This document shows, piece by piece, positions 6,800 to 50,528 of a stretch of 64,000 nt of DNA (its first letter is position 1; each line of letters begins with the position of its first letter). The DNA comes from Minisyncoccia bacterium (GTDB lineage Bacteria > Patescibacteriota > Minisyncoccia > Phycocordibacterales > UBA1006), in the NCBI GenBank assembly GCA_044229075.1, contig JBGATS010000003.1, positions 12,372 through 76,371 of the forward strand, given 5' to 3'. The translations under genes were made by a program, and so were the position numbers. A model generated the notes under the pieces. It had not been told where the DNA came from and searched no databases. It was given only the letters and a program-made list of their open reading frames with translations.

Positions 6800-7549
6800 C
6801 TATTCTGGGAGTTCTTTTGTTTCTTCGTTGTGTGAAATTTTTTCTACATGGTCCACTTTCTTTCCTGAAGTAATGTATATATATGCACACACACTTGCAA
6901 GATATACAACAGGAATGGCTACAATTAACCCTACTACTAATACAATAATACCGAGAAGAGTCACTAATAATTGCCAGAAAGCTAATTTGATCAACATCCA
7001 TACATTTCCCTGAGTCATTGCGAATGCTTTTTTCAACATGGCAACAATTCCTAGATCGCTATGATCGAGAGCAATAAAAACAAGAAAACTCATACGAATT
7101 GAAAACCAGATGAGTGCAGTGACTGCAATACAAGTAACTACTACTCCTGCTACCATAGCAATTCCAGATCCAGAGAATAATCCCAAGAGAACTACTGCCA
7201 TGATAATTCCAAAACATACCAGCATCACCAGACTCACTAATAATTGTGTGATGAAATATTTACCCCACAGTCGTGGTTGTGTTTTAAAATCAGACCAAGT
7301 AGATGAATTTCCTCGAACAATTCGTAGTAATACCTGTGCCCATCCTAAACTCAATGCAAGAGATAGTAACGTTCCTACAATATAATTGAGAACCAAGAAT
7401 CCCCATCCGCGATCAGTTGGAAAAACAACTTGAACAATAAGTGTCACGATAAGACTAGCAATACCTGCAGGAATAATAAACTTCCAATGTTTTTTAAACA
7501 ACCCCCATGCCTGAGCAATAAACGATCGTGTATGTAGAGAATTTTCCAT
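6800..7549 (-). CDS. polytopic membrane protein, unknown function
   Basis: Multiple hydrophobic helices (IIPAGIASLIVTLIV..., LLGLFSGSGIAMVAGVVV...). Confidence 0.5.
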   Translation of the reverse strand: MENSLHTRSFIAQAWGLFKKHWKFIIPAGIASLIVTLIVQVVFPTDRGWGFLVLNYIVGTLLSLALSLGWAQVLLRIVRGNSSTWSDFKTQPRLWGKYFITQLLVSLVMLVCFGIIMAVVLLGLFSGSGIAMVAGVVVTCIAVTALIWFSIRMSFLVFIALDHSDLGIVAMLKKAFAMTQGNVWMLIKLAFWQLLVTLLGIIVLVVGLIVAIPVVYLASVCAYIYITSGKKVDHVEKISHNEETKELPE

Positions 7550-7626
7550 AAAATGATAGATATATAATTATTTAAATAATAACCTATTCAGTATAATGAA
7601 AAACTCTGAAAAAGTAAAGATGTTTT

Positions 7627-7684
7627 TCAAAAAATACAAAACAAGGGGGGCGCCTACGGCGCCCCCCTTGTTTTGTATTTTTTG
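7627..7684. terminator. strong bidirectional rho-independent terminator
   Basis: A-run, then caaggggggcgcc-tacg-gcgccccccttg (13-bp GC-rich stem), then T-run. Lies downstream of tRNA-Ile (minus) and insulates the 6800-7549 gene. Confidence 0.75.
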
Positions 7685-7700
7685 AATTCCCTACCCGATG

Positions 7701-9539: not shown

Positions 9540-10922
9540 ATGAAACCTATTTACCTCACAAACACCCTTTCCAAACAAAAAGAAACGTTCCAGTCAATTA
9601 TTTCTGGATCTGTTTCGATGTACCACTGCGGACCGACCGTTTATGGGTCTATTCATATTGGAAATCTGCGAGCATTTTTACTTGGCGATATTGTTCGTCG
9701 CGTATTTGAATATAATGGATACAAAACCAATCAAGTAATGAACATCACCGATATTGGACATTTGGTTTCTGATGGAGACGATGGTGATGATAAAATGACA
9801 AAAGGATTAAAACGTGAAGGAATGGAAGTCACCCTTGAAAACATGTTAAAACTGGCTCGAAAATATGAGGATATCTTTGTAAACGATATTACCGAAATGA
9901 ATATATTGCGTCCAAAGATTCTTCCACGAGCCAGCGAACATATTGATGAAGATATTGAAATCATTAAAAATCTTGAGGAAAAAGGATTCACATATAGTAT
10001 TTCTGACGGAGTCTATTTTGATACCGAAAAAATGCCAGACTATGGAAAACTGGGCGGTCTTTCAAATTCAAACGAATCGCGTATCGGTGAAATTTCTGAA
10101 AAGAAAAATCCACGTGACTTTGCATTATGGAAATTTGATGACACAAAAGGTTGGTCATCACCATGGGGGCAAGGCTTTCCTGGATGGCATATCGAATGTT
10201 CTGGAATGGGAATGAAATATTTAGGCGCACAATTTGATATTCACACTGGTGGACACGACCTTGCAAGTGTTCATCATAATAATGAAATCGCACAGTCAGA
10301 ATGCTCAACCGGACATACTCCATTTGTCAACTACTGGTTGCATAACGAATTTGTGAATATTGGAGATATGAAAATGGCAAAATCCGGTGATAATTCCATT
10401 ACCATGGATACTGTTCGCGAAAATGGGTATAATCCTCTTTCTTTGCGATATTTATATCTACAATCTCATTATCGATCACAAGTGTCGTTTTCATGGGATT
10501 CCTTATCGGCTTCAGAAACAGCACTTAAAAAACTGCAAGCTTATATCAGAAAAATTGAAGGAACTGGTGAAGTTTCAGAATCATACAAAACACTGTTCAC
10601 CGACATAGTGAATGATGATTTGAATACCGCAGGAGGTCTTGCAGTCGTGTGGGAACTAATCAAGAATCCGGACATTTTAGACGCAGACAAGAAAGCAACT
10701 ATTTTGGATTTTGATCGCGTACTCGGACTTAAATTAGACGAAATACCAACAGACGAAGAAGTATTCGAAATTCCTGAGCATGTTCAAAAATTATTAAAAG
10801 AACGAGAAATTGCCCGTGAAAAGCAAGACTGGCACACATCAGATCTGATCCGAAACGAAATCCAGGCCCTTGGATACGAATTGAAAGATACGGATGATGG
10901 ACAGAAAGTGAGGAAGGTGTAA
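9540..10922 (+). CDS. cysS: cysteine--tRNA ligase
   Basis: MYHCGPTVYGSIHIGNLRAF (HIGH motif) and KMAKSGDN (KMSKS motif), plus class I CysRS architecture. Confidence 0.9.
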   Translation: MKPIYLTNTLSKQKETFQSIISGSVSMYHCGPTVYGSIHIGNLRAFLLGDIVRRVFEYNGYKTNQVMNITDIGHLVSDGDDGDDKMTKGLKREGMEVTLENMLKLARKYEDIFVNDITEMNILRPKILPRASEHIDEDIEIIKNLEEKGFTYSISDGVYFDTEKMPDYGKLGGLSNSNESRIGEISEKKNPRDFALWKFDDTKGWSSPWGQGFPGWHIECSGMGMKYLGAQFDIHTGGHDLASVHHNNEIAQSECSTGHTPFVNYWLHNEFVNIGDMKMAKSGDNSITMDTVRENGYNPLSLRYLYLQSHYRSQVSFSWDSLSASETALKKLQAYIRKIEGTGEVSESYKTLFTDIVNDDLNTAGGLAVVWELIKNPDILDADKKATILDFDRVLGLKLDEIPTDEEVFEIPEHVQKLLKEREIAREKQDWHTSDLIRNEIQALGYELKDTDDGQKVRKV

Positions 10923-11558: not shown

Positions 11559-12470
11559 TTATAACAATTCATTTTTCAATTCCTCCACAATTTTCTTCGC
11601 ATCTTTGGACAATTTCTTCGGCATTTCAATATGCGTTCGGATCAAAAAATCTCCATTTCGCAAAAATCCTGCAGTGACACCCTTTCCTTTCAATTTGATC
11701 ACATGTCCCACCGGCATACATTCTGGAATTTCAATCATTTCTTTTCCGTCTAGTGTTTCAATTTCGATACTCTTTCCAAGTAATGCATCGACAAGTGACA
11801 CATGTAAATCCATTACCAAATTACTGCGTTCTTTACGAATGGTTGGATGTTTTTCTACAATCACGGTGATGATCAAATTCCCTGGGCGACCTTCACTTAC
11901 TACTTCTCCTGCACCGTCCATTTGTAATTGCTGTCCGTGTTCTACTCCAGCTGGAATAGTCACAGAAACTTTTTTCATTCCGTTTTGCTTACCATCACGA
12001 TAATCGGGAACATTAATTTCACGGGTAAATCCACGCACTGATTCTTTAAACGTCATATTCATCTGAACCTCGATGCTGCGACCTCTGCGGAATCGTCCAC
12101 CACCAAAACCGAATGCTGCACCGAACAAATCACCAAGATCAATATCTCCCATATCAAACTGCGCACCACCTCCCTGTTGTGCCTGTCGCATGATGTCTTC
12201 CCATGAAAAACCACCGAATCCGCCGCCGCCGAACGGATTTCCCTGTCCGCCGCCGAACTGTGGTCCACTTGATCCGAACTGGTCGTATTGTGCGCGTTTG
12301 TTTTTGTCAGAAAGTGTCTGGTAGGCTTCGTTGATTTCCTTAAATTTTTTGTCATCGCCTCCGTTTTTGTCTGGATGATGCTGATGTGCAAGTTTGCGAA
12401 AAGCAGCCTTGATTTCTGCTTCAGAGGCTTTTTTATCGACACCTAGGGTTTTGTAGTAGTCTTTGCTCAT
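11559..12470 (-). CDS. dnaJ: J-domain chaperone DnaJ/CbpA-type (J domain plus G/F-rich linker plus C-terminal substrate-binding domains; no CxxCxGxG zinc finger)
   Basis: YYKTLGVDKKASEAEIKAAFRKLAHQHHPDKN (HPD motif), a G/F-rich stretch, and only one Cys in the whole protein. Confidence 0.8.
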   Translation of the reverse strand: MSKDYYKTLGVDKKASEAEIKAAFRKLAHQHHPDKNGGDDKKFKEINEAYQTLSDKNKRAQYDQFGSSGPQFGGGQGNPFGGGGFGGFSWEDIMRQAQQGGGAQFDMGDIDLGDLFGAAFGFGGGRFRRGRSIEVQMNMTFKESVRGFTREINVPDYRDGKQNGMKKVSVTIPAGVEHGQQLQMDGAGEVVSEGRPGNLIITVIVEKHPTIRKERSNLVMDLHVSLVDALLGKSIEIETLDGKEMIEIPECMPVGHVIKLKGKGVTAGFLRNGDFLIRTHIEMPKKLSKDAKKIVEELKNELL

Positions 12471-12476
12471 AAAATT

Positions 12477-12582
12477 CAGTACTCCTCAGTCCTTCGGACA
12501 ACTCCTCTAAAAGAGGAGCCACTTCCAAACGTCGGGTGCTTTGCTCCTCTTGTAGAGGAGCTCCGCGAAGCGGTGAGGAGTA
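12477..12582. repeat. structured palindromic intergenic repeat element, copy A (about 106 nt, 3-prime terminus truncated by about 3 nt)
   Basis: cagtactcctcaGTCCttcgGGACaaCTCCTCTaaaAGAGGAGccacttccaaacgtcgggtgctttGCTCCTCTtgtAGAGGAGctCCGCgaaGCGGtgaggagta. Terminal inverted repeats GTACTCCTCA/TGAGGAGTAC and four internal hairpins. Sits between the DUF559 stop (3 nt away) and the dnaJ ATG (6 nt away). Confidence 0.85.
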
Positions 12583-12585
12583 AAT

Positions 12586-12939
12586 TTATCTTAAATATTC
12601 CTTAATCTTCATAATAACTCCATCAATCGATTGTAATACTTCATTATTTGAAAATCGAAGTACTGTATAATCCAAACTTTTCAAATAATTATCACGCACT
12701 GTATCATATTCCAATCCTTTTTCATAATAATGTTGTGATCCATCGAGTTCGATAATTAGTTTATATTTATGACAATAAAAATCTATAATATACGGACCGA
12801 TTCCAAACTGCCTGCGAAATATTACACCAAGTTGTTCATTTTTCAAGTATTTCCACAATAATCTTTCCTCTTTCGTACTTCTGTTACGAAGATCTTTTCT
12901 GCGATGTTTTAGAAGTGGATCATTGTGAATGAATTTCAT
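12586..12939 (-). CDS. DUF559-family protein (Vsr/restriction-endonuclease-like fold, 117 aa)
   Basis: IIDFYCHKYKLIIELDGSQH...DTVRDNYL...VLRFSNNEV matches the DUF559 / very-short-patch-repair endonuclease-like core. Confidence 0.7.
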   Translation of the reverse strand: MKFIHNDPLLKHRRKDLRNRSTKEERLLWKYLKNEQLGVIFRRQFGIGPYIIDFYCHKYKLIIELDGSQHYYEKGLEYDTVRDNYLKSLDYTVLRFSNNEVLQSIDGVIMKIKEYLR

Positions 12940-12984
12940 AAAGAATCTTGAATACAGTACTCCTAATTATTAAACAGTAGTATA

Positions 12985-13093
12985 CAGTACTCCTCAGTCC
13001 TTCGGACAGCTCCTCTAAGAGAGGAGCCACTTCCAAACGTCGAGTGCTTTGCTCCTCTCTTAGAGGAGCTCCGCGAAGCGGTGAGGAGTACTG
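12985..13093. repeat. structured palindromic intergenic repeat element, copy B (109 nt, complete)
   Basis: CAGTACTCCTCA...TGAGGAGTACTG, same internal hairpins as copy A (UUCG tetraloop hairpin, two GCTCCTCT-NNN-AGAGGAGC hairpins, CCGC-GAA-GCGG hairpin). A partial extra terminus tacagtactcct lies at 12953-12964. Confidence 0.85.
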
Positions 13094-13215
13094 AATTTGC
13101 TGAGGTTTCTCACCTCTCTACCAAACACGTCTTTCAACCTGTCCGGAAAGAAGATTGGACTTACTTGACAAGTATGATATTATTTGATATCATATTTTTA
13201 ATAAAATTAAATAAT

Positions 13216-13473
13216 ATGTCAAAATTTAAGTATTTTTTCTCGTTTTGTTTATGGATGATCTTTTGGTTTATTCTCATAAATAAGACAAGAGGGTCTATAG
13301 TGTATATGGACCAAGTTTATTTATTATTCTTTTTAATATGGGGTTTCTTAATTGGAGCCTTTGGAAATTGGTTTTACTTCTTTTTTGCTGACTTAATTAT
13401 GTTTGTTATTAGTCTAATAACAACATCAGGACGCGATCAACAACATATTAAATGGGCAGCTTGGAGAAAATAA
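13216..13473 (+). CDS. small hydrophobic protein (85 aa), hypothetical
   Basis: ATG at 13216 in frame with the track ORF 13081-13473. Two or three predicted TM helices. AT-rich. No homology recognised. Confidence 0.3.
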   Translation: MSKFKYFFSFCLWMIFWFILINKTRGSIVYMDQVYLLFFLIWGFLIGAFGNWFYFFFADLIMFVISLITTSGRDQQHIKWAAWRK

Positions 13474-13551
13474 TACTATTTTAAAAATTACTCAACCTCT
13501 TACCCCACCCAGAACTGCAATATGCGGTTCTGGACAGTAAAGAGGTTGTTT

Positions 13552-15438
13552 TTATTTCCCTTCCTCAGCTCCCTCTTCTTTTGTTTCCTCTGTTGCTGAC
13601 TCAGATGCTGCATTACCCGCAGCATTTTTTTCTTGCTCAGCTTTCTGAATGATTTCGTAAATCTTCATCATTTCATCTGAAAGTGCAGATGTTGCAGAAT
13701 CAATTGCCGCTGCATCGTCTTTATCTTTCACATCCTTCAAGGTTGTGATTTTTTCGTTGATAGCAGTTTTGGTTGCATCATCCAATTTGTCAGCGTATTC
13801 TTTCAAAGATTTTTCTGCTGCAAAGATTGATGTTTCAGCCGTGTTTCGCTTATCCACCAAATCCTTTTTCTTTTCATCTTCCTCTTTGAATTTTTCTGCA
13901 TCTTCCTGCATTTTCTTGATATCTGCATCTGACAATCCTCCTCCTGATTGGATCGTAATTGACGCTTCCTTGTTAGTTGCTTTATCAGTTGCTTTTACAT
14001 TTAGGATTCCGTTTGCGTCGATATCAAATGTTACCTCGATCTGTGGAATTCCGCGTGGAGCTGGTGCGATATCGCCAAGGATAAACCGTCCGAGTGATTT
14101 GTTATCAGTCACCATCGGTCGTTCACCTTGAACGATATGAATGTCCACTGATGTTTGGTTGTCTGATGCAGTACTGAATACTTGTGATTTTGATGTTGGA
14201 ATCGTTGTGTTTCGCTCGATTAATTTTGTCGCTACGCCACCCATTGTTTCAATTCCAAGTGATAATGGAATTACATCGAGGAGAAGTACATCCTTCACGT
14301 CACCTTGTAATACTCCGGCCTGAACTGCAGCACCAAGAGCTACTACTTCATCCGGGTTGATGGTTCGGTTTGGTTCTTTTCCGAACAACTTCTTTACTTC
14401 TTCGACAATTTTTGGCATTCGAGTCTGTCCTCCAACCATGATTACTTCATCGATTTCACTCATTTTGAATGGTGAAGCCTCTACTGCGCACTTTGTAATT
14501 TCAATTGATCGATCGATGAATTCTGCAGCCAATTCCTCCAATTTACTGCGAGACATTTTCATCATCAAGTGTTGTGGCACGCCATCATTCTGCGCGATGA
14601 ACGGAATATTGATTTCAGTTTCAGTTGTTGTTGAAAGTTCATGTTTTGCTTTTTCTGCAGCTTCTTTTAATCGCTGTAGTGCAAGTACATCTTTTGTAAC
14701 ATCCAGCCCTGATTCCTTTTTAAATTCATCCCCAATCCATGCAACGATTTTTCGGTCGATGTCTTCACCTCCCATGTGCGCGTCTCCATCAGTAGATTTT
14801 ACCTCTACCAAGTCTGCTCCAACCTCGAGTACTGAAATATCGAATGTTCCACCTCCGAAGTCGTACACGGCAATTTTCTGGTCTTTTTTGGAATTGAATC
14901 CGTATGCCAATGCCGCTGCTGTTGGTTCGTTAATGATTCGCTTTACATCAAGTCCTGCAATTTTACCTGCGTTCACTGTCGCCTGTCGCTGTGCATCGTC
15001 AAAGTATGCAGGAACTGTAATAACAGCCTCTGTGATTTTCTCGCCAAGTTTTGCTTCCACATCCGCTTTGATCTTTGAAAGGATCATCGCAGAAATTTCT
15101 TCAGGTGATTTGTCCTCGCCTCCGAATTTCACCATCACGCGATCATCTGTTCCTTTTGAAATTTTAAACGGTGAATGCGGAATGTCTTTTGTTACGACTT
15201 CGTCACTGAATTTGTGACCCATGTATCGTTTGATTCCGAAAATTGTATTTTCTGGATTGGTAACCGCCTGACGTTTGGCTAATGCTCCGACCATTCGGTC
15301 ACCATTTTTTGCCTGCGCAATGATAGAAGGCGTTGTTCGTGCACCTTCTGTGTTTTCAATAATTTTTGGTTGACCACCCTCGATGATTGCTACCGCCGAG
15401 TTTGTGGTTCCCAAGTCGATTCCAATGATTTTTGACAT
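13552..15438 (-). CDS. dnaK: molecular chaperone DnaK (Hsp70)
   Basis: [17 protein letters not shown]...DLGGGTFD..., full Hsp70 motif set, 628 aa. Confidence 0.95.
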
Positions 15439-15456
15439 ATGATTAATATAATAGAA

Positions 15457-15663
15457 TTATTTTTTAATAAAGTATTTTTCAATTTTTTCTAAAGAATTAT
15501 GAGTAAGACTACTCGTCTGTTCTATTTCAGTTTGTTTTTCACTTATCCAATTGACGTTATGTTGAATACTAGGAATAAATTTACTGATGTAATTTAATTC
15601 AAAGTATATTTTAAATAATATAATTGTTTGAATTATAACAATTATTGTAATAAGTATTTCCAT
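15457..15663 (-). CDS. small membrane protein (68 aa), hypothetical
   Basis: N-terminal hydrophobic helix ILITIIVIIQTIILF. Lies between the minus-strand promoter at about 15972-15999 and dnaK. Confidence 0.3.
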   Translation of the reverse strand: MEILITIIVIIQTIILFKIYFELNYISKFIPSIQHNVNWISEKQTEIEQTSSLTHNSLEKIEKYFIKK

Positions 15664-15668
15664 AAAAA

Positions 15669-15908
15669 TTAAAATGATATTTGCTCATTGATTAGTTCTG
15701 TTAGTAATAATTTAGCTAGACTTTCGGGATTTGAATTACCTAACTGGGTAACTTTTTTACCATACACAGAAAAAACATAAATTAAATCATCTACAACATG
15801 AAAAATACCAGAAAATTTATCGTCATTTTTTTCAATATAAATTTGATTCATAATTTTATAATTATAGTTAAATATTAATAATTCTCTAAAAGTTTTCGTG
15901 AATAACAA
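15669..15908 (-). CDS. hypothetical small protein (track start is TTG; an in-frame ATG would give about 60 aa)
   Basis: ORF only; AT-rich. Confidence 0.2.
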   Translation of the reverse strand: MLFTKTFRELLIFNYNYKIMNQIYIEKNDDKFSGIFHVVDDLIYVFSVYGKKVTQLGNSNPESLAKLLLTELINEQISF

Positions 15909-15940
15909 GTGCTTTTTTAAAATTCCAATTTGACAAGATG

Positions 15941-15954
15941 TTCGCGGTCGCGAA
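15941..15954. promoter_or_regulatory. perfect palindrome TTCGCGGTCGCGAA just downstream of the predicted dnaK-operon promoter (operator-like)
   Basis: Inverted repeat TTCGCG-GT-CGCGAA located about 10-25 nt downstream of the predicted -10, a typical repressor operator position. Confidence 0.3.
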
Positions 15955-15971
15955 ATACTTGTACAATTCCT

Positions 15972-15999
15972 AGTATAATGCTATTATTTTTTTAGTCAA
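15972..15999 (-). promoter_or_regulatory. sigma70-like promoter on minus strand (TTGACT, 16 nt spacer, TATACT) reading toward the small ORFs and dnaK
   Basis: RC of agtcaa (15994-15999) is TTGACT. The 16-nt spacer precedes RC of agtata (15972-15977), which is TATACT. Directly abuts repeat copy C. Confidence 0.5.
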
Positions 16000-16003
16000 G
16001 TAC

Positions 16004-16112
16004 CTGTACTCCTCAGTCCTTCGGACAGCTCCTCTATAAGAGGAGCCACTTCCAAACGTGTAGTGCCTTGCTCCTCTTGTAGAGGAGCTCCGCGAAGCGG
16101 TGAGGAGTACTG
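16004..16112. repeat. structured palindromic intergenic repeat element, copy C (109 nt)
   Basis: ctGTACTCCTCAgtccttcggac...gctcctcttgtagaggagctccgcgaagcggTGAGGAGTACTG. Hairpin loops differ from copies A and B (ata vs aag/aaa) while the stems are preserved. Confidence 0.85.
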
Positions 16113-16274
16113 TATTAAAATCTATGAAATCCAACGACTATTCCAAAAGATAAAAAAAGCTCCTTCCAATTAAGAAAGGAGCGAACGTCTCAAAGAGACG
16201 TCTACTTATCATACTTGTCATGCTTATTTATTTGTACCTCTAGTATAGCAGAATCAAAATATTTGTCAAGCTTT

Positions 16275-16823
16275 ATGTCTAAAAATAACGACTATTCCAA
16301 AAAAATATTGAAAATATTAGCCGAAAATAAAGCGGTTTCTTTCCCTGATCTGTCTGATAAGCTTATCAAGGACATGTCTGAAACCACCAAAAACGACCCA
16401 AAAAAGACACAATACGCCCTGAATCGGTCATTGCGCGGCTTGCATGAATCAGGACTTGTAGAGAGTCATTTTTCAGGTCAGAACGACTATGCCCGACTGA
16501 CCAAGGCCGGCAAACGAAAGGCCGTCAGCCTGCAATTAGAATCGGATTCTACCCTTGTTCCCAACTGGGATGGCCAGTGGCGAATCGTATTGCTCGACCT
16601 TCCGGAATCCCGAAAATCAGAACGCGAAGCATTGCGGTATCTTTTGAAAAAAGCAGGATTTGAGCTGTTGAAAAACTCGGCATGGATTTCCCCATTTCCC
16701 TATGAACATCTATTCATGAATATTAAAAAAGATTTGGGGCTGACGACCGAAATGATGGTCATGACGACCAATAGTCTGGATGCGGAAACAGAGGCAGAAT
16801 TGTTTAAGTTGTTTCAAAAATAA
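16275..16823 (+). CDS. PaaX-like transcriptional regulator (winged helix plus PaaX C-terminal-like domain)
   Basis: WDGQWRIVLLDLPESRKSEREALRYLLKKAGFELLKNSAWISPFP matches the PaaX_C signature (WxGxW..v.fd.pe..r..R..lr..L...GF..l..svwisP). Start taken at ATG 16275 (MSKNND...). Confidence 0.5.
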   Translation: MSKNNDYSKKILKILAENKAVSFPDLSDKLIKDMSETTKNDPKKTQYALNRSLRGLHESGLVESHFSGQNDYARLTKAGKRKAVSLQLESDSTLVPNWDGQWRIVLLDLPESRKSEREALRYLLKKAGFELLKNSAWISPFPYEHLFMNIKKDLGLTTEMMVMTTNSLDAETEAELFKLFQK

Positions 16824-38762: not shown

Positions 38763-41700
38763 TTATTCAGTAGGAGTATCCCCTGATCCACCAGAACCAG
38801 TGTTAGTCGGGGGAGGTGTTGTACCCCCTGATCCCGAATCTCCTGTTCCTGAAGTACTACTTGTCGGATCTGTAATATCTCCACCAGACGTGTCGCCAGT
38901 ACCAGTATCACCAGAAGGCGTAGAATCGCCATCTGTTCCAGTTCCTGTTGATGAAGTATCCCCACCACTAGGGGTAGATGATCCACCAGAAACAACTGTT
39001 CCTTGTCCATTCATCATTGATTCCAATTGGTCACCATTTACACAGTATTCAGATCCATCTGCTTTTTTCAAACAAATTTGTTCTGAACGAACCTTTTTCG
39101 CAAAGAGTTCATTAATTCCGTTTGTTGCACTCGCGAGCCAGTCACGGAGCTTGGTAACAAATGTTGAATCAGTTCCATCTGTGTTAAATTCAAAGTTCTC
39201 AATCTGATTAATATTTAGATCAAGCTCTTTGATTGCCGCGATAACAAATGGGATTGATGATGATTCATTAATAGCTAAATACCCGTCAGGATTAGTTACA
39301 ACACCTGCTGGAATTAATTGTTGAAATTCCTGTGCAAGGAAACCATCGTAATGAGTTCCTGTTCCATCCCCGATGAAATTATAATTCACCGGACGAAGTC
39401 CTGTAATTTTTGCAAGTGCATCTGCAGTATTGATATCCACTACATTTTCCTTGAGTCGTGCATCAGACGTACATGCCCAGTTTGCACCAGCACCAGGATT
39501 GAATGTACACACTCCGGCTGCAGTATTGTCATCAACTGTGATCAGATTCCCGTTTGGAGTCGTAGCAGAACCGATCGATACTAATGCTGATGTTGCTGCA
39601 CTATCAACTGTCAGTAATCCGCTTGTTGTTGTTGTGCCAATACCTAATCGTCCTGCAGCATCCAGTCGCATACGCTCTACACCTGCGGTACTGAATCCAA
39701 CAATATCAGCGCCCGGACTAAATATTCCTGTATTAGTATCTGCAGTCCAACTATACGCAGGTACAGCAGCAGTCCCAAGTCCTGTTAATTGAACACCACC
39801 TGTAGACGTTTCTTGAAGAAGTTTCACCCAAGATGTCCAAACTCCTCCATTTCGTCCACGCATAAAGATACCATTATTAACATTATTTGAATATGGAATA
39901 CCTAATTGGGTAGTATTACCAGTTCCATCTTTACTACTATATTCAAAGTTAAACGGATGATAGTAACTTCCTGATCCAGGACCATTTGTTGCGGTACCTA
40001 GAAGTAAGGTGTATCCCTGACCTGATCGTGAATTAGTAACATCATTCCAATCAACAACACCTGCTGTAGTTACCGCCCCAAAACCTCCTTGAATAATTCC
40101 ATTCACTTCAAGTTTTTGTGTTGGTGCTGCAAATCCTAATCCAAGATTTCCTGCTGCAGTAAGTGTCATTCGAGTCGCGCCTGATGTTTCAAAATTGAGA
40201 TTTTGAACATCATTCGTACCAAGTGTTGCTGCTGCTCCAAAACTATTTCCATTTTGGATAAACATACCAGTCGTTCCATTGATATCAAATTTACGAAGAT
40301 CACCATTTGCGTCTGAATAAACTAATCCATTCGTACCACCGAGAGCAAGTCCTGAAATTGATGTTCCTCCGAGTGAATTAAATCGAATGTTTGCAGTCCC
40401 TGCAGTACCTGCAACATGGAATAATTGTGATGGTGTTGTAGCACCAAGACCAATACCGACATTACCGCCATTTGGGTTAAACATCATTGGGTAATTAACC
40501 GCAAGTGTCCCCTGATTCGTTACCTGCATCCATGCACCATTAGCGCCATTGATACCCGTATCAATAACTACACCTGAAGCATCGCCAAATCGTGATACAT
40601 GTCCAGCACCTTGTACAGTTCCAGAAGTTGCGGCAAAACTTGAGCCGCTATCGTTTACAAATAATCGTGCAGTTGTAAGAGGTGTCGCACCAATACCAAA
40701 ATTACCAATAGTATCAAATGTTGCACGGGTCACACCAGCTGTTTCAAATCCAAGATTAAACAAGTCATTCGTACCGAGGGTTGCTGTTGTTCCAAAACTA
40801 TTTCCGTTTTGGATAAAGTCACCATTCGTAATACTTGCCATTGATCGTTTATACAATTCGCCGTTTGTATCTACAAACAATATTCCGTCATTTGCTCCCA
40901 TGGTATAGGCCGTAGTTATTGCCGGACCAGAAAGATGGGTAATACGTACATTTGGTGTTCCGGCTGCCGCTGTCTGAGCAACACCATTTACATGAAATTG
41001 ACGTGTAGGAGCAGTTGTACCGATACCTACATTCCCACCGTTAGGGTTAAGCATAAGTGGATATGTCAAAGACAAATCTCCAGTATTAGTTGCTTGAAGC
41101 CAGGTACCTGATCCTCCATTACCACCAATATCAAGTGTTGCGCTTGTCGCTGCGCGAAGTCGTGTAATAAATCCTGCAGATTGAGCAGTTCCTGAAGTAC
41201 TTGGGAATGCGTTTCCAGTTCCTACTACTTCTAGTTTTGCCTGTGGGATTGTGGTATTAATACCAAAATTACCACCTGCATCCAGTCGCATACGTTCTGT
41301 ACCATTAGTTGACCATGCTTGAATATCTGCGCCTGGACTCCACCAACCGTTGTTAGTATCCCCAACAAAACTATGTGATGGAGTACCAGCAATACCCAGT
41401 GCGGTAAACATACGTCCTGTAGTATCTATTTGGAATAAGTCACCGTTTCCTACGGTAAAGAGTGAAGCAGGTGTTGTATCACCAATACCTACAAACCCAC
41501 CAGCAGTAACACGCATACGTTCGGTGTTACTTGTTCGTGTGACAAAATCAACTGCATCAGTGGTACCAATAAAATTGGTTGTTGCAAGTGTTCCTGCATT
41601 TCCTGTTATCATCCAACCGTTATTAGCATTTGCCAGAGCAACCCAACCAGTGTTCGTTCCAAGACCTGAAGCCTTGTAATACATAATTCCATTAGTAATA

Positions 41701-44700
41701 TCATTTGCAATATCACCCACTGATCCAGTTACAAAAGCATTGGGGCTACTATTGGTAATAAATGTTTGATAATCACCCCCTTGGTTTGCAAGTGTTTCAA
41801 TTGGGATATTCATTGTAAGTCCACTATTTACATGTAATTTTGTAGCAGGGGTATTTGTTCCAATTCCTAAACGACTATTGGTATTATCCCAGAAGTATTG
41901 CGCATTGTTTTGTGAAAGTAGTCCTCCTGCACCTGCAAAGAATACTGATCCTGGGGTCATCGTCGCAAAAGTTGTATTTCCATTAAATGTCGCTGCACCT
42001 GCAAAGGTTTTTGCTCCAGCAAAGGTTTGTGTTCCTGTTGAGACGAGTCCTGGGAATGTTGCGTCCGCAGTCTGCATAAAGAGGTTTGTTCCAGAGATTG
42101 CAGCACCATTTGCAGATTTTGTAGTTCCATCAAGTGTTCCAATAGTACTCACTCCTGCTGTGATTGCAACTGATCCTGCAGCGGTAAGGCGCCCCTGCGC
42201 ATCTACCGTAAATGTTGGTATGTTAGTTGCAGATCCATATGAACCTGGAGTAACCGCAGTGTTTGCAAGACCTACGGTTGCCGTTGCATTTTCAGCGCCG
42301 GTACCTGTTACGGTAAGGCCTGTCCCAGAAAGAATGGTCGCAACATAGTTTCCGGTGGTGTCAGTACCCAAGGCTACTGCATCAGGCTGTACTACGGTTG
42401 CACCAAGCGTACCTCCGATATCACCCGCAAGGGTAAGTCCAGAGATAGGAGTACTTGAAGCAATTCCATTGACTGTTGAGGTAAGATTACCCGCAGCAAA
42501 AGAAAGAGTATTACTGTTAACAATAGGAGCCGTTACTGAAATACCGTTTACGACGGAGGTCAACGTGTTTGCCGATGACCCAAGAGTATGAGTCATTGCT
42601 ATTGATCCAGCTGCAGTGAGACGTCCTTTACTATCTACGGTAAATGTTGGAATACTCGTAGCTGATCCATATACTCCAGCAGTTACTGGTGTGTTTGAAA
42701 GAGTAAGTGATGTACCTGTTCCCAATACTGCACCGGTTCCACCTGTTATAGAAATATCAGAGGTGGTTGAGGTAAGGTTTCCACCAGCAAGTGATGAAAG
42801 AGCTATAGATCCTGCACCTGTTAATCGTCCTTGTGCATCTACTGTAAAGGTAGGAATAGATGATGTTGAACCATAAGATCCAGCAACTACTCCTGTGTTG
42901 GTAAGAGAGATGGTTCGATCTGCTGAAAGATTTCCTCCCCCTGTGAGACCAGTTCCTGTGAGTATTTGTCGAGTACTATCTACTTTTGCATTAAAGGTTG
43001 CCCAATCAGTAGGTGTAAGAAGACCTCGATTTACAGCCGTAGCAGAAGGAAGATTTAAAGTATGTACCCCTGCTGCAGTTGTAATATTTGCATTGGTTCC
43101 TAGAGATCCAATAACAATACTTTGGTTTGGATTAGTATCACCATTAATAGAGGTAATAACTCCTAATGATGAAAGCGGTTGCCATGAATCAGTTCCTCCA
43201 GCACCACCAGAAACCAAGACCATACCTGATGATCCACGTGATCCTGATGGGGCAAGTCCTCCGGTACCATTCATACCATAATACATATCACCATTACTAT
43301 CGATGATATATTTGTTCGCATCGTTAGTTCCTAGGATTACAGCATTACCCCAATCACCAACAAGGTTTGAACCAATCGTAATTGCCCCGTTTTTAACAAG
43401 ATTATTTCCAAAACCAAATGCTGCTGTACCTGACACACCTGATCCTGAATTATTAAGACCAATCATTACAGAGGTATCAGAATTATCAATTCCATTACCA
43501 TATCCAAATTGGTATATTAATTTACCATTATCCTTACTTCCATTATCCATACCAATTTGTGTTTGGTATGAAGATCCTCCAGAAATACTGTTTCCTTGCC
43601 CAAATTGTTGCGTATTTTGTCCATCAGTACTATTTAATTCACCTACTTGATAAGTACTTGTTCCTGATGAACTGTTGTTGTCACCAAAAATCATATTCAA
43701 CGAACCTGACATTGATGTACCTGTACCAAACGCAAGATTCTGTCCTGCAGTATCTACAATCGTTGGTTGGTTAAGTGTTCCTCCAAGGATAATTTCTGTT
43801 CCTGTATTGGTAAGTCCATTATTCACTGCAACTAATCCAGTAACATCAGACCATGTAGGTGAATTACCTGCTCCATTAGAAACAAGTATCTGTCCACTGT
43901 TTCCTGCTGTTCCACTTGCAATAAGATCATTTAAAAGAATGACTGAATCATTGAATGATTTATCACCACCAAATGTTTGAGCACTTGTCGTAACAAGACC
44001 TCGCGCAAGAGTTGAAGCGTTAGGAATATTAAGAGTTAGAGTTCCTCCAAGAGATGCAGGAGATCCAGAAACATTCACATCAGTTCCCGTTGTTCCTGTT
44101 GCAAGACCAATCGTCCCTAATCCAGAAAGAGGCGTGGTTGCTGCAACTCCGTTAATAGTAGAAACAAGGTTCCCACCTGCAATAGCAAGCGTATTCGCAT
44201 TAATAATAGGAGCTGATGTAGAAACACCATCAACAACCGATGTCATAGTATTTACTAATGAACCCAATGTATTCGTAAGAGTACGATTCCCAGCAAGGGT
44301 AAGTCGTCCTTGGGCATCAACGGTAAAGCTCGCAATAGACCCAGGAGCTCCATACGAACCAGCAGTAACGCCCGTGTTATTCAATCCTACAGTAATATCA
44401 CCAAGTCCTACCAAGCGGTTAGTAAGTGCTCCTCCAAGTGTCATTCCTGTTCCTTGGATAATTGATCCAGCTGATCCAGTCGTTGCACAGGTAGGGCATG
44501 AAATTTCACCGGTTGTGTTGTTGTACGCAATAGGTGCAAGTCCTGAGAGTGCTGCACGCGCTCGTGCATTGGTGAAATAGAGATTTCCGTTTTCAGGAAC
44601 AACTGAAGTGTCAAGTGTCTGCCAAGTTTTATCACCACGCCAGTATTGCGCCGTAGTTCCTGCAACAATTGCAGGTTCTTTGCTATTGAAATTAATCCAA

Positions 44701-47700
44701 TCCGCAGGTGAAAGAGCTCCACGATTTATGTTTGAAGCGGTTGGAATATTAATCGTATGAGTTGATCCAGATGAAGCAATATTTACATCAGTTCCAGATG
44801 TTCCTGCTGCGAGAGTTTGTGCAGTTGCAGTAAGTCCGTTCAGTGATGTAATCGCAAGTGATGAAATAGGAGTCTGCCCTGCAAGCGTAAGACGTCCCTG
44901 AGCATCAACGGTGAAGGTTGGAATATTTCCTGTAGTTCCATATGACCCAGCTGTCACACCTGTAGTCGTAAGGTCAAAATTATTTGCGGTACGAGCAATA
45001 CCACCACTGGCAGTCATAATGTCAGTTACCGTATTTCCTGTACGTGAAAGTCCACCGGTAAAGGTAAGTACATTTTCCTTGTTATTAAATGTCGTCCAAT
45101 CTGTACTTGTTAAGAGTCCGTTTTGAGCATTAGTTGCATTTTGAATATCGAGCGTTGTCCCTGCACCAAGTACTGCCCCTGATCCTCCACTGATAGTGAT
45201 CGCACTATTTGGAGTTGTAAAGTTTGATCCAGACATCGCTGAAAGTGCTGTTGACCCTGCTGCAGTGAGACGACCTTTTGCATCCACAGTAAAATTAGGA
45301 ATCGCTGTAGTCGTTCCATATGATCCAGGGGTTACTGTAGTGTTCGAGAGTGTAAGCGTTGCACCAGAACCAAGCACGGCACCTGTTCCGCCAGTTACTG
45401 CAATATCAGCTGTTGTTGATGCAAGATTTGATCCAGACATCGCTGAAAGTGCTGTTGATGATGCAAGTGTAACACGACCATCTTGGTCGACAGTAAATTG
45501 TGGGATTGATGACGCACCACCATACACACCTGCAGTAACCCCAGAACTTGTAAGTTCGGCAGGCCCTACTACGTCATTATTGAGTTGGATATTTCCAAGA
45601 TTTCCAGAAACATCACCTGCTACAGCAATAGTGTTTGTTGAAACAGTTCCAGCAGCGGTAAGACGCCCTTGTGCATCTACAGTAATAAGTGGGATACTTG
45701 TTGCAGATCCGTATGAACCAGCAGTAACGCCCGTGTTATTCAATCCTACAGTAATATCACCAAGTCCTACCAAGCGGTTAGTAAGTGCTCCTCCAAGTGT
45801 CATACCTGTTCCCTGGATAATTGATCCAGCTGATCCAGTCGTTGCACAGGTAGGACATGAAATTTCACCTGTTGTTGAGTTATATGAAATTGGAGTAATT
45901 GCAGAAAGAGCTGCGCGTGCGCGAGCGTTGGTAAAGTAGAGATTTACTGTTCCTTCTGTAAGGTCATCCGTTGTTTTTGTAGCTAATGCTGCGTCGAAAC
46001 GAACTGGTGTCCAATACAAATTAGTTCCTTCGGGCACTACGGTTGTATTGAGAGTTTGCCATGTTTTATCGCCACGCCAGTATTGTGCAGTAGTTCCTGG
46101 TACAATTGCGTTTTCCTTGTTATTAAAGGTATTCCAATCAGTTGCGAGAAGAAGTCCGTTCTGGGTTGGTCCTGCAGATTGAATATCAATCGTTGCACCT
46201 GATCCAAGTACTGCACCTGCTCCCCCGGTGATAGTAACTGCAGTGTTAGGTGAAGTAAGGTTTGATCCAGTAAGTGAAGAAAGTGGTGTTGAACCAGCAT
46301 TGGTTAATCGTCCCTGAGCATCCACAGTGAAGAGTGGGATTGAAGAGGTTGAGCCATATGTTCCAGCAGTGACACCTGTAGAAGCCAAGTCAATAGTGGT
46401 TGCAGCATTTTCTATCCCAGAACCAGTCACGATCAACGCACCACTTGCAGGGGCAAGGGTTGCAATATAGTTTCCAGTCGTGTCAGTAGCAAGTGCTACC
46501 GCATCAGTTCCAATGACGGTTGCACCAAGGGTTCCAGTTACATCACCTGCAAGTGCCATTGATGAAGTGCTTGACCATGCAGGAATACCTGTTGGACTTA
46601 CACTTAATACTTGTCCAGTAGTTCCAATAGGAAGTGCAGAGAGCGTGTTTGCACCTGAAGCAAAGAGGATATCACCGAGGGTATATGAAGAAAGTCCCGT
46701 TCCCCCCTTTGTTTCATCGAGTACTCCTGAAATATTATTGAGTGAAAGTGCTGACTCATTAACGTCAACAGAAAATGGTTGTAATACCGCACCAATTGGT
46801 GTACCGCTGAGGATGACCTTACTTGATCCAGCAGTTACATCATATGTTCCATTTGCTGCCATAATTGCAGCAGCATCAAAACGAGTCCAGTCGGTAGAGG
46901 TAAGTAAACCATTTTGAGTAGCAGTTGCGTTTTGTATATTGATAGTTACTCCACTACCAAGTACTGCACCTGATCCGCCGGTGATAGAAATAGCACTATT
47001 CGGAGTAGTGATATTTGATCCTGACATTGCAGTAAGTGCCACTGATCCAGCAAGACCTAGTCGTCCTTTCGCATCAACTGTAAATGTTGGGATGGATGTA
47101 TTTGATCCATATGAACCTGCGGTTACGCCAGTACTTGAAAGAGTGACCGCTGTTCCTGTTGGGTTGAGTACCGCTCCTGCCCCACCTATTACCAAAATAT
47201 CTGAAGTAGTAGAAGTAAACGATCCACCCGATCCAGATGTCACACATGATGGACAAGAAATTTCACCTGTCGCATTACTGTAAACAATCGGACTGGTTGA
47301 GTAGAGTGCATTACGTGCACGAGTATTTGTGAAATACAAATTAGATCCTTCAGGTACTACTGAAGTATCAAGGTTTTGCCAAGTTTTATCACCGCGCAAA
47401 TATTGCGCTGTTGTTCCTCCTGAAAGCGCATTATCCAACGCATCAAATCGCTGCCAATCGAGTGCAGTAAGGAGTCCGCGATTAGCTGATGAAGCTGATG
47501 GGATATTAAACGTGTGCACACCTGCAACTGTAGACACGTTAAAATCGGTACCTGTAGTACCGGTTGTAAATGTTTGGATTGATGCCGTATCACCATTGAG
47601 TGAGGTGATACCTCCACCAGCAGCCCCAGGAATGGTTACGGTAACCGTCCCACCCACGTTGGTTGCGGTAACCCCTGCTCCGACAAATTGCAGTTTCAAT

Positions 47701-50488: not shown

Positions 50489-50528
50489 AAAAAGCGAACC
50501 AATCTCCCAGAGTTGTTTCGCTTTTTTT
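50489..50528. terminator. bidirectional rho-independent terminator
   Basis: aaaaagcgaacc-aatctcccagag-ttgtttcgcttttttt (one mismatch in the stem). The T-run overlaps the helicase stop codon. Confidence 0.5.

Follow-up and report, generated by a model that had tools for sequence, protein, structure and literature searches.

A Nested-Palindromic Repeat in a dnaK-dnaJ Locus Is Probably Tied to a Mobile DUF559 Nuclease Cassette

Results and Discussion

The palindromic repeat present in three copies at the dnaK/dnaJ locus of the 64-kb stretch of Minisyncoccia DNA analysed here (the window) probably represents a MITE/REP-like family linked with a mobile DUF559 cassette, a laterally moving occupant of the dnaK-dnaJ spacer. 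The best reading of the 109-nt element itself is a DNA-level nested-palindromic interspersed repeat, similar to MITEs, REPs and REPINs. The interpretation given in an earlier note on this DNA, which had considered a heat-shock regulatory RNA, a MITE or a homing target and had overlooked the DUF559 nuclease gene, is partly supported. The relevant features of the locus are as follows:

11559..12470, minus strand: dnaJ, of the type without zinc finger, its ATG 6 nt beyond copy A
12477..12582, plus strand: palindromic element copy A, between the DUF559 stop and the dnaJ ATG; covariance model score 117.8 bits
12586..12939, minus strand: DUF559 ORF, 117 aa, Vsr-like PD-(D/E)XK nuclease fold (Pfam PF04480, E 1.2e-34)
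12955..12966, plus strand: solo terminus remnant, CAGTACTCCTAA (gene strand TTAGGAGTACTG), 15 nt upstream of the DUF559 ATG
12985..13093, plus strand: palindromic element copy B, upstream of DUF559, with perfect 12-nt inverted-repeat ends; 137.1 bits
13102..13116, no strand assigned: small hairpin GAGGT-TTCTC-ACCTC, the anchor gtagaggtgagaaacctc (gene strand), immediately preceding the insertion point
13552..15438, minus strand: dnaK (Pfam families for homologues)
15943..15966, minus strand: TTGTACAAGTATTTCGCGACCGCG, candidate dnaK operator, its first 17 nt conserved in L091, L095, L103 and L105
15972..15999, minus strand: promoter-like site (TTGACT-16-TATACT) of the small ORFs and dnaK; copy C is 4 nt away
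16004..16112, plus strand: palindromic element copy C, solo, between the dnaK promoter -35 and the original-start remnant of a PaaX-like gene; 129.1 bits

Copies, Boundaries and Structure of the Element

A repeat finder returned a single family of three 109-nt copies in the same orientation, with 94% and 91% identity to the reference, bearing out their earlier description, and alignment of the copies reveals sharp boundaries. All three lie within 3.6 kb (clustering p ~0.01). The 12-nt terminal inverted repeats previously ascribed to every copy are perfect in copy B (12/12 nt, CAGTACTCCTCA / TGAGGAGTACTG), but reach only 11/12 in copy C (CTG in place of CAG) and 9/12 in copy A, whose right terminus is 3 nt short (...GAGGAGTAaat). 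Allowing up to one mismatch, the terminal 12-mer occurs six times against 0.09 expected, and the inner motif GCTCCTCTNNNAGAGGAGC six times against 0 expected. One of the 12-mer matches is the solo terminus at 12955-12966, formerly overlooked, which has counterparts in L094, L095, L099/L100 and L105. Searching the window, with filters off, using a covariance model of ten family members recovered copies A, B and C only (118-137 bits), the next match being an unrelated palindrome at 24.6 bits, while an Rfam search with the element matched no family.

Each copy is one long, near-perfect palindrome, the arms of which are self-complementary too. Three parts make up an arm: the terminal repeat, whose core is GTAC, a mini-hairpin of extra stability (GTCC-TTC-GGAC or CCGC-GAA-GCGG), and a pyrimidine-tract/purine-tract hairpin (GCTCCTCT-NNN-AGAGGAGC). 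The minimum-energy fold of either strand is a single long hairpin (-63 to -73 kcal/mol, with z scores near -9 to -10) and not the four internal small hairpins formerly envisaged, the first of which, moreover, is a triloop, GUCC-UUC-GGAC, instead of GUCC-UUCG-GGAC. The triplets then regarded as variable loops between intact stems actually pair with each other (AAG/CTT in copy B, ATA/TGT in copy C). Covariation is seen between the arms, with double changes at 9 pairs and a score of 0.161 versus 0.110 for shuffled controls (0/500 shuffles as high). The AACGT at the symmetry centre is invariant or nearly so across the ten aligned copies.

Copies A and B are direct repeats on either side of the DUF559 ORF, within the dnaK-dnaJ spacer; this ORF also matches the 'endonuclease-like protein' of PDB 3HRL (E 1.8e-18). 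Copy A lies 2 nt from the DUF559 stop and, as had been noticed, 6 nt from the dnaJ ATG, and copy C adjoins the -35 of the predicted promoter, again in agreement with the earlier description. Copy B, on the contrary, precedes DUF559, so that not all copies are located 5' of heat-shock genes. The anchor hairpin is kept in relatives with DUF559, with a GIY-YIG gene or with an empty site. Likewise, TTGTACAAGTATTTCGC, downstream of the dnaK promoter, is conserved in relatives whether or not they carry the element, and GAGGRGTACTGAATTT(T)ATG is conserved ahead of dnaJ in the window, L095 and L099/L100.

Distribution among Relatives and Lateral Movement

The element is polymorphic for presence/absence among relatives. 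It occurs on every contig-reached flank in 9/9 relatives' loci with DUF559 at dnaK-dnaJ (L094-L102, the DUF559 loci that match the element itself, from at least five assemblies), and L095 additionally carries an orthologous C-like copy at the same position (6886-6996). Neither BLAST nor the covariance model detected it in the three close relatives without DUF559 (L091-L093), of which L093 has an empty site (dnaK, 86 nt, dnaJ), and L091 and L092 have a GIY-YIG gene in place of DUF559. This difference separates even genomes whose DnaK proteins are 98.9% identical, L100 having DUF559 and elements and L091 GIY-YIG and no element. Relatives with DnaJ 80-92% identical have no element at dnaK or dnaJ. 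Orthologous copies appear inverted between lineages with their flanks unchanged.

Between the window and L094, identity at third codon positions is 93.2% for DUF559 (109/117) versus 74.2% for dnaK (293/395; Fisher p = 2.8e-6), and nucleotide identity amounts to 96.3% for copy B, 95.6% for the spacer, 88% for the anchor and 61% for the neighbouring small-ORF region. Such an excess of synonymous-site identity in the DUF559 block points to its lateral movement, although the discordance could also come from recombination at dnaK instead of the cassette, and DUF559 could be present at the same site in the distant L103 and L105 because it was inherited vertically over a long time and lost in other lineages. 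Natural competence is a property of Saccharibacteria, which recombine incoming DNA (PMC10633639).

Hairpin-Flanked DUF559 Genes and Solo Copies at Other Sites

Many of the compared loci are orthologous, leaving about six independent observations; in all of them (6/6 loci, at four genomic sites in two phyla) DUF559 is flanked by pyrimidine/purine-tract hairpins. Besides the more distant genes at the same dnaK-dnaJ site (L103, L105), hairpin-flanked DUF559 genes sit between pgk and tpiA (L104), between sdhA and sdhB in a Bacteroidota genome (L110), and in frame inside wecB (L001). Altogether, 15 of 25 such hairpins fall within the 200-nt DUF559 flanks, which represent 2.1% of 114 kb, and do so at 6/6 loci. 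The ORF of L103 is directly bracketed by 46-nt inverted repeats, and the flanks in L105 read ATACTCCC...GGGGGAGTAT.

Solo copies also exist. A single homologous locus from Saccharibacteria came out of exact-word scans of public collections; a solo copy lies between rplS and a tRNA gene in the Saccharibacteria relative L006, and others are found in L103 (11030-11124) and L105 (9535 and 10021). Bacteroidaceae MAGs contain full-length homologues (best, L005, 44.3 bits, E 4e-9), and the viral contig L108 has left-arm modules in tandem. Bacteroidaceae and Saccharibacteria share identical repeat stretches of 27-29 nt, yet identity between the DUF559 proteins of the two groups is no more than 42-50%, a discrepancy that the cassette model leaves unexplained.

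Alternative Explanations

This cross-phylum conservation of the repeat, far above that of the protein, is in favour of a reading in which the palindrome is an ordinary, selfish MITE/REP-like repeat whose spread is unrelated to DUF559, the two merely sharing permissive spacers or target hairpins. Solo copies far from any DUF559 (copy C, L006, the Bacteroidaceae L002-L005 and the viral L108) agree with that possibility, as do the GIY-YIG genes, flanked by hairpins of quite another kind, in the dnaK-dnaJ spacer of L091, L092 and L103, which indicate that this spacer is a general hotspot. We nonetheless consider it unlikely, considering that (i) tract hairpins occupy the immediate flanks of DUF559 in 6/6 independent loci, (ii) in L105 and L103 the flank sequence is lineage-specific and the architecture constant, which looks like co-evolution, and (iii) GIY-YIG cassettes at the hotspot lack the 109-nt repeat. 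It is more doubtful still that the palindromes form an expression-control module insulating a potentially toxic nuclease gene, as terminator, RNase III site or translational block, with solo copies as scars of lost cassettes. Hairpins of such stability on both strands (-58 to -73 kcal/mol), placed at gene boundaries next to the DUF559 stop and the dnaJ ATG, could act in this way; every lineage has a solo terminus upstream of the DUF559 ATG, excision via direct repeats A and B would leave one copy, and the Correia elements of Neisseria are bound or cut by RNase III and alter neighbouring-gene expression (PMC2649163). On the contrary, a terminator scan flagged 0/3 copies, no U-run follows the stem in B and C, copy C occupies a divergent promoter region with no transcript end, and orientation is not conserved among orthologous copies, while the invariant centre, the GTAC-containing termini and the cross-phylum stretches are left unaccounted for.

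Very improbable is the ROSE-like thermometer formerly proposed, in which the dnaJ Shine-Dalgarno (SD) sequence GAGGAG is sequestered by the other terminus and freed when hot. In its favour, 3/3 window copies are in the dnaK/dnaJ locus, where they cluster (p ~0.01), and GAGGRGTACTGAATTT(T)ATG is kept before dnaJ as described above. With known ROSE, fourU or CIRCE/HrcA systems it shares a purine-rich motif near a chaperone start codon that is held in a stem. However, this stem is perfect (fold about -59 kcal/mol) and predicted closed: the predicted probability that GAGGAG is unpaired stays between 1e-4 and 2e-3 over 20-60 C (2e-4, 3e-4 and 2e-3 at 37, 42 and 60 C, respectively), so that no melting transition is predicted. 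The host, moreover, barely uses SD motifs, an SD-like 4-mer preceding 5/51 window ORFs, two of them element-derived, and none of the ribosomal-protein genes. Close relatives' dnaK and dnaJ are devoid of the element, the L006 copy lies at rplS and a tRNA gene, the gene after copy B is DUF559, copy orientation flips between lineages, and the dnaK promoter is marked by another conserved motif, TTGTACAAGTATTTCGC. CIRCE consensus is absent, and the GAGTGCT once taken for a CIRCE half-site is GGGTGCT in A and TAGTGCC in C, thus unconserved.

Comparison with Known Systems

The DUF559 cassette resembles the REP/REPIN-RAYT systems ('REPtrons'), in which presence of REP families predicts RAYT genes (PMC3116915, PMC3337134, PMC3733652), in its short nested palindromes, with two inverted units forming long hairpins, its solo intergenic copies, one small enzyme gene lying between repeats that vary together with it from lineage to lineage, and the lack of target-site duplication. 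It differs in that the gene encodes a PD-(D/E)XK nuclease and not an HUH/Y1 transposase, in GTAC termini without a GTAG or CGTC tag, in an apparently low copy number (3 in 64 kb, clustered) and in its site specificity for dnaK-dnaJ. With bacterial MITEs such as Correia/CREE of Neisseria, RUP and ERIC (PMC2649163, PMC2229807, PMC10969869) the element shares its length of about 110 nt, terminal inverted repeats, whole-element hairpin, insertion by start codons and promoters, co-transcription with neighbours and presence/absence between close relatives, but it has neither target-site duplication nor a related IS transposase, its arms are themselves palindromic, and a nuclease ORF is associated. 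Integron cassettes combine an ORF with one imperfect attC palindrome of 57-141 nt, and direct-orientation copies around a cassette are expected when a circle integrates into a resident site (PMC2811028); here there is no integrase, attI or R/L box consensus, and no cargo other than the nuclease itself is seen. This is analogy only.

Free-standing homing endonuclease genes include the phage T4 seg/mob type and Vsr-like EDxHD enzymes. Like these, DUF559 is a small nuclease ORF between conserved co-oriented housekeeping genes (dnaK-dnaJ, pgk-tpiA, sdhA-sdhB), found at the same site across genomes with patchy distribution and lower synonymous divergence than flanking genes, and alternating with GIY-YIG at dnaK-dnaJ. 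To our knowledge, genes of the homing type do not usually lie between members of a dispersed family of palindromic repeats, as this one does, and both cleavage of the empty site and homing are putative here.

Proposed Behaviour of the Cassette

The cargo of the cassette would be a free-standing DUF559 (Vsr-fold) nuclease gene, with the element as part of it: A and B would be the direct repeats bounding the ORF and C a solo copy 3 kb off. It would move laterally between related genomes at the dnaK-dnaJ spacer, its spread perhaps promoted by the nuclease, either through break repair of the homing type once DNA has been taken up by natural transformation or through action on the palindromes, although we know of no DUF559 protein with enzymatic activity on such palindromic DNA. 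The MITE or homing-target alternatives of the earlier note went in the right direction as regards presence/absence and the nuclease gene, but the mechanism is one we infer, and no target-site duplication was evident at the copies beyond, at most, a weak AATT enclosing the B...A block as a whole. The element is accompanied by no transposase. Homologous recombination between the 94%-identical direct repeats may excise the cassette and leave a solo copy, and solo copies may be transposition products or scars of decayed cassettes. Being transcribed into the DUF559-dnaJ message, the element probably forms a strong RNA hairpin too, a barrier or processing site, which would be a side effect with no temperature sensing. 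The heat-shock surroundings of the copies would then follow from the cassette insertion site and not from a regulon, the DUF559 gene between dnaK and dnaJ being probably selfish.

Structure of the repeat

A single repeat family with three same-orientation 109-nt copies was returned by the repeat finder, their in-register coordinates being 12474-12582 (copy A), 12982-13090 (copy B) and 16001-16109 (copy C), and the identity to the first copy being 94% and 91% for the other two. Upon alignment, copy similarity ends abruptly at CAGTACTCCTCA on the left and at TGAGGAGTACTG on the right. The 12-nt terminal inverted repeats (TIRs) are perfect in copy B, match at 11/12 positions in copy C, and lack the final 3 nt in copy A. 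Within the window the terminal 12-mer occurs 6 times at ≤1 mismatch, against 0.09 expected, one of these occurrences being a solo terminus at 12955-12966 that the earlier note had missed; the inner motif GCTCCTCTNNNAGAGGAGC also occurs 6 times, with none expected. Scanning the 64-kb window with a covariance model of this family, filters disabled, gave no fourth copy, a weak match at 7609-7699 being discarded as an unrelated perfect palindrome behind a tRNA gene. This 29-bp palindrome (TTCAAAAAATACAAAACAAGGGGGGCGCC-GTA-GGCGCCCCCCTTG..., 7626-7686), which directly follows the tRNA gene, folds at -56 kcal/mol, is unrelated to the 109-nt family and is probably a bidirectional terminator.

Each arm of the element consists of three parts, namely a TIR with a GTAC core, an 11-nt mini-hairpin, and a 19-nt hairpin whose stem joins a pyrimidine to a purine tract (Y/R hairpin). 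One arm has the mini-hairpin GTCC-TTC-GGAC and the other CCGC-GAA-GCGG, which includes GCGAAGC, an exceptionally stable DNA mini-hairpin. The self-complementarity of each arm allows local hairpins as well as a long hairpin or cruciform. On both strands the minimum-energy fold forms one long hairpin (-63 to -73 kcal/mol, z about -9 to -10) rather than the four internal hairpins previously described. Likewise, the triplets read as variable loops between intact stems do vary, but they are not unpaired, as they pair with one another (AAG/CTT in copy B, ATA/TGT in copy C).

Both fold models were evaluated on 10 family members from several genomes (alignment A2).

Fold models compared on alignment A2
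Model; cells paired; covariation (shuffle mean); shuffles reaching the score; double-change pairs
Inter-arm (long hairpin); 90.6%; 0.161 (0.110); 0/500; 9
Local hairpins + terminal stem; 93.0%; 0.078 (0.062); 28/500; 3, all in the terminal stem

Clear covariation beyond the element termini is given by the inter-arm model only, its pairs covarying at a score that no shuffle reaches. Mini-hairpin stems vary between arms and between phyla yet remain self-complementary, which supports local folding too. The element comes in two flavours, CTCCTC/GAGGAG and CCCCTC/GAGGGG, in which both partners switch together; TIR pairs covary as well (ACTCCTCA/TGAGGAGT versus ACCCCTCA/TGAGGGGT), and AACGT at the symmetry centre is invariant or nearly so in 10/10 aligned copies. 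An intramolecular triplex or alternative-pairing switch, in which the terminal pyrimidine tract would compete with the inner hairpin, was dropped because the CTCCTC and CCCCTC variants do not discriminate it. No Rfam family was matched by the element at the gathering threshold in the window or nine related loci, gathering and permissive thresholds alike returning only tRNAs and sub-threshold microRNA-like hairpin noise. The element is a real, structured repeat family, with palindromic structure and compensatory change.

Gene context in the window

Genes at the element locus all lie on the minus strand, except for a small plus-strand ORF after dnaK. Their order is copy C, a promoter-like site, two small ORFs, dnaK, the small plus-strand ORF, copy B, the solo terminus, the DUF559 gene, copy A and dnaJ.

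15438-13552, minus strand, dnaK
12939-12586, minus strand, DUF559 ORF of 117 aa (Pfam DUF559, E 1.2e-34)
12470-11559, minus strand, dnaJ

Copies A and B are thus direct repeats on either side of a small nuclease gene, the sole gene bracketed by element termini. The closest solved structure to its 117-aa product is 3HRL, an "endonuclease-like protein" (E 1.8e-18). A Pfam scan of 26 of the roughly 52 window ORFs detected neither a transposase nor, in particular, an HUH Y1 transposase (Y1_Tnp), and an integrase was not found. Exact look-ups of the DUF559 and DnaK proteins of the window retrieved no identical record. Elsewhere in the window, a giant ORF of 3054 aa (38763-47927, minus strand) contains internal repeat families D1-D3, D5, D7 and D8, of 55-268 nt.

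Occupied and empty sites among close relatives

DnaJ homologues of 80-91% identity led to three syntenic loci (L091-L093), all with the order grpE, PaaX-like gene, dnaK, variable stretch, dnaJ, variable stretch, cysS, and no element was found in them by BLAST or covariance model. L093 is an empty site with a dnaK-dnaJ gap of 86 nt. DUF559 homologues of 79-96% identity led, in turn, to nine loci from at least 5 assemblies (L094-L102), which carry DUF559 at the same dnaK-dnaJ site and the element on every flank within contig reach; L095 also shows a C-like copy at the position of copy C. In all, this site holds DUF559 in the window, L094-L103 and L105, and not in L091-L093. The contrast extends to very close genomes, with L100 and L091, whose DnaK proteins are 98.9% identical, carrying DUF559 with repeats and a GIY-YIG nuclease gene without them, respectively. 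Orthologous copies appear flipped between lineages with their flanks unchanged, and the insertion point in the window and in L091, L092 and L093 is recognizable by a small hairpin (gtagaggtgagaaacctc). The element is therefore polymorphic in presence and absence at one site among close relatives. The stretch after copy B has a 9-mer match to L093, only suggestive of TATACTACT being the ancestral dnaJ leader.

GIY-YIG genes lie before or after dnaJ in L091 (about 9600-9990), L092 (9560-9990) and L103 (7586-7873). Those of L091 and L092, where the flanks were read, occupy the same spot as the DUF559 gene and are bounded by different hairpins of their own (gtcattccggacttgatccggaatccag ... ggatcctgaatcaagttcaggatgac). 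The spacers of the dnaK-dnaJ-cysS stretch form a hotspot of small nuclease genes.

Divergence of the cassette (the DUF559 gene with its flanking elements) is discordant with that of flanking genes when the window is compared with L094.

Identity between the window and L094
DUF559 third codon positions; 93.2% (109/117)
dnaK third codon positions; 74.2% (293/395)
Copy B; 96.3%
Spacer from copy B to DUF559; 95.6%
Anchor region; 88%
Small-ORF region; 61%

The third-position difference between DUF559 and dnaK is significant (Fisher p = 2.8e-6), and against L095 identity at third positions is again higher for DUF559 (80%) than for dnaK (71%) and dnaJ (56%). Such discordance implies either a cassette younger than its carrier genomes or a locus that is mosaic through recombination. 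A route for lateral movement is offered by the natural competence of Saccharibacteria, which incorporate incoming DNA by recombination (PMC10633639).

Distant DUF559 genes and solo copies

The association with DUF559 is a general one, with the flanking pattern recurring at more distant DUF559 genes. At the same dnaK-dnaJ site, L103 (69% DUF559 identity) shows 46-nt inverted repeats of element halves directly bracketing the ORF, and L105 (58%) a diverged full element, a solo terminus, the ORF and then a half element. In the pgk-tpiA spacer of L104 (60%), CCCCCTCTTT/AAAGAGGGGG-type hairpins lie on either side of DUF559, while CCCTCTCC/GGAGAGGG precedes it in the sdhA-sdhB spacer of a Bacteroidota genome (L110). 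In a Bacteroidaceae MAG (L001, 5063-6670, minus strand), the DUF559 domain (aa 298-402 of 535) lies in frame within UDP-GlcNAc 2-epimerase, bounded by translated CCCTCCC/GGGAGGG hairpins, and looks like a nuclease insertion without an intein. Across six DUF559 loci, 15 of the 25 Y/R hairpins fall in the 200-nt flanks of DUF559, which account for 2.1% of the sequence, and none of the loci lacks such a hairpin there. The element co-occurs with DUF559 and is positioned around it.

A Y/R hairpin module (CCTCTCCTAGTGTAGGAGAGG then GCCGGGGTGAGGTC) resembling that upstream of DUF559 in L110 was also noted at 51390-51410 of the window, in frame in ORF 50527-53565 (minus strand), a UvrD/AddA-like helicase-nuclease gene in which it encodes ...SPRPSPTLGEGGAS....

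Solo copies exist elsewhere. An exact-word scan of GTDB genomes (species representatives) retrieved one Saccharibacteria and five Bacteroidaceae loci. The former, the sole match outside Bacteroidaceae, is a Ca. Saccharibacteria MAG (L006) in which a single full copy separates rplS from a tRNA gene, while in each of the five Bacteroidaceae MAGs there are several copies, their flanks being unrelated. Bacteroidaceae copies are full-length homologues (best 44.3 bits, E 4e-9) with arms identical to Saccharibacteria copies over 27-29 nt; some contain extra inserted hairpins, and their right-arm modules end in GAGGAGTAG, Saccharibacteria copies ending in GTAC(TG). On a viral contig of 56% GC (L108, 5060-5160), two tandem modules, ATCCCCCTGTCCCTACGGGACATCCCCCTTTTCAAGGGGGA and ACTCCTCCGTCCTTCGGACACCTCCTCTGGGAGAGGAGG, share the architecture of the left arm and stand directly before a gene start. 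The exact-word scan of metagenomes gave 84 loci, mostly unrelated high-GC matches, many of them with the same CCGCGAAGCGG mini-hairpin within a Y/R hairpin. BLAST of the 109-mer against plasmid and phage collections and an 18-mer scan of viral sequences gave no match, and literature on the element motifs, on DUF559 and on CPR with MITE or homing yielded no description of the element.

The 18-mer scan also picked up tRNA-like sequences (GGAGAGATGGCTGAGTGGTCGAAAGCG...) unrelated to the element in 14 metagenome loci (L013, L023, L030, L036, L044, L049, L051, L053, L055, L059, L060, L062, L071 and L083), which seem to hold a ~70-nt insert in the T-arm region containing GCACGAAGTGCGCCGCGAAGCGGTGAGGAGCGAAGCGACG.

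Rejected heat-shock role and the probable dnaK control region

The earlier note favoured a heat-shock role, with all copies 5' of heat-shock genes and the terminal GAGGAG of copy A acting as Shine-Dalgarno (SD) sequence of dnaJ within a ROSE-like thermometer. The three structured copies withstood examination by repeat finder, alignment and folding, but that role is wrong in view of relatives, SD use, melting and motif content. Copy B precedes DUF559, not a heat-shock gene, and the element is missing from L091-L093 and yet present at the rplS-tRNA locus of L006. GGAG, GAGG or AGGA occurs within 25 nt upstream of only 5/51 window ORFs, 2 of these motifs being supplied by the element, and no SD precedes dnaJ in relatives with an empty site. 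RNA thermometers are recognized by an SD and/or AUG held in a stem that is imperfect and only marginally stable and that melts across physiological temperatures; for the 160-nt dnaJ leader (minimum free energy -58.8 kcal/mol at 37 °C), the ViennaRNA partition function predicts no such melting, the unpaired probability of GAGGAG being 1e-4 at 30 °C, 2e-4 at 37 °C, 3e-4 at 42 °C and 2e-3 at 60 °C. As for the CIRCE-like half-site, it is one 7-nt string in copy B, replaced by GGGTGCT in A and TAGTGCC in C, and the element does not contain the CIRCE/HrcA operator TTAGCACTC-N9-GAGTGCTAA. A heat-shock operator or thermometer was consequently rejected on absence at relatives' heat-shock genes, presence elsewhere, orientation flips, scarce SD motifs, lack of predicted melting, variation of the CIRCE-like heptamer and the presence of another, conserved motif by the dnaK promoter, which removes the tempting annotation of a new heat-shock thermometer in a candidate-phyla bacterium.

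TATACT/TATAAT-like boxes lie ~10 nt before the ATG at many of the 51 ORF starts of the window, where SD motifs are almost absent; their position suggests leaderless or very short-leader mRNAs.

Control of dnaK more likely resides in a conserved 17-24 nt motif together with a PaaX-like regulator gene. The motif TTGTACAAGTATTTCGC(GACCGCG), just downstream of the dnaK promoter (15943-15966, minus strand), contains the palindromes TTGTACAA and TTCGCG-AC-CGCGAA, and TTGTACAAGTATTTCGC is conserved with or without the element (L091 6805-6821, L095 7033-7049, L103 3378-3394, L105 67-83). This motif is a more convincing candidate operator of dnaK than the 109-nt element. A winged-helix gene with a PaaX_M domain is found in the window (16275-16823, plus strand) and in L091-L093, L095 and L103, divergent to dnaK in every examined locus reaching upstream of it and mostly directly after grpE; in this genome, which has no hrcA, its product may serve as the heat-shock repressor. 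At 16125-16290 of the window, a stop codon truncates the original PaaX-like 5' end (ATGAAATCCAACGACTATTCCAAAAG, intact in L095), and ~125 nt further on comes a second copy of AACGACTATTCCAAAA in a new start region. This insert, with a promoter-like site at 16269-16242 and a terminator-like hairpin at 16182-16159 (both minus strand), may represent a small RNA or a further short insertion carrying a long duplication.

Nature of the element

Three known kinds of mobile sequence share features with the element. IS-derived MITEs have in common with it terminal inverted repeats and presence/absence polymorphism, but they differ in target-site duplication, none being seen at the flanks of copies A, B and C or of those in L006 and L094-L100. 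A weak AATT surrounds the whole B-DUF559-A block, and duplication of TA or AATT for single copies was not supported. REP/REPIN-RAYT systems resemble it in two inverted palindromic units forming a long hairpin; however, the gene flanked here is DUF559 (Pfam E 1e-34) and not RAYT, an HUH Y1 transposase, and the GTAG or CGTC tag is lacking in Saccharibacteria copies. A REPtron or a MITE is the nearest working likeness, even though the element lacks defining features of both. With free-standing homing endonuclease genes the cassette shares the same intergenic site, patchy presence in relatives and evidence of lateral transfer, but, unlike such genes as a rule, it comes with a dispersed family of repeats.

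Considering these features together, we regard the element as probably, though by no means securely, a palindromic repeat of selfish nature that is tied to a mobile cassette carrying DUF559. Spread would be driven by the DUF559 nuclease, either through homing-type repair of a cut empty site or by acting on the palindromes. Recombination between the flanking direct repeats would then excise the ORF, leaving solo copies, and the element, once transcribed, would act as an RNA barrier or processing site. The repeat is far better conserved across phyla than the DUF559 protein, for which the proposed model gives no explanation. Palindromic interspersed repeats and selfish nuclease cassettes are known kinds, and the new part is the association of such repeats with DUF559.

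A broader and rather doubtful proposal is that DUF559 nucleases and Y/R nested palindromes together form a class of selfish element that spans phyla and has so far gone unrecognised. In it, the nuclease would stand where RAYT stands in REPtrons, or the whole would be a palindrome-bounded homing cassette, with the 109-nt repeats as its non-autonomous derivatives or as results of excision. Patescibacteria and Bacteroidota would both have members, related repeat modules being seen also in a viral contig and high-GC soil bacteria, and these members could sit between essential genes or in frame inside them.

DUF559 is one of the most widespread nuclease domains of "unknown function"; its fold is solved and, to our knowledge, no biology has been assigned to it. 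The present analysis provides a testable idea, namely that it behaves as cargo carried by a selfish, site-specific cassette together with palindromic repeats of the cassette's own. If true, this would explain many hairpin repeats beside "endonuclease domain-containing protein" genes in MAGs, would link a second kind of enzyme besides RAYTs to REP-like repeats, and would flag mosaic, laterally exchanged segments within conserved operons of reduced genomes.
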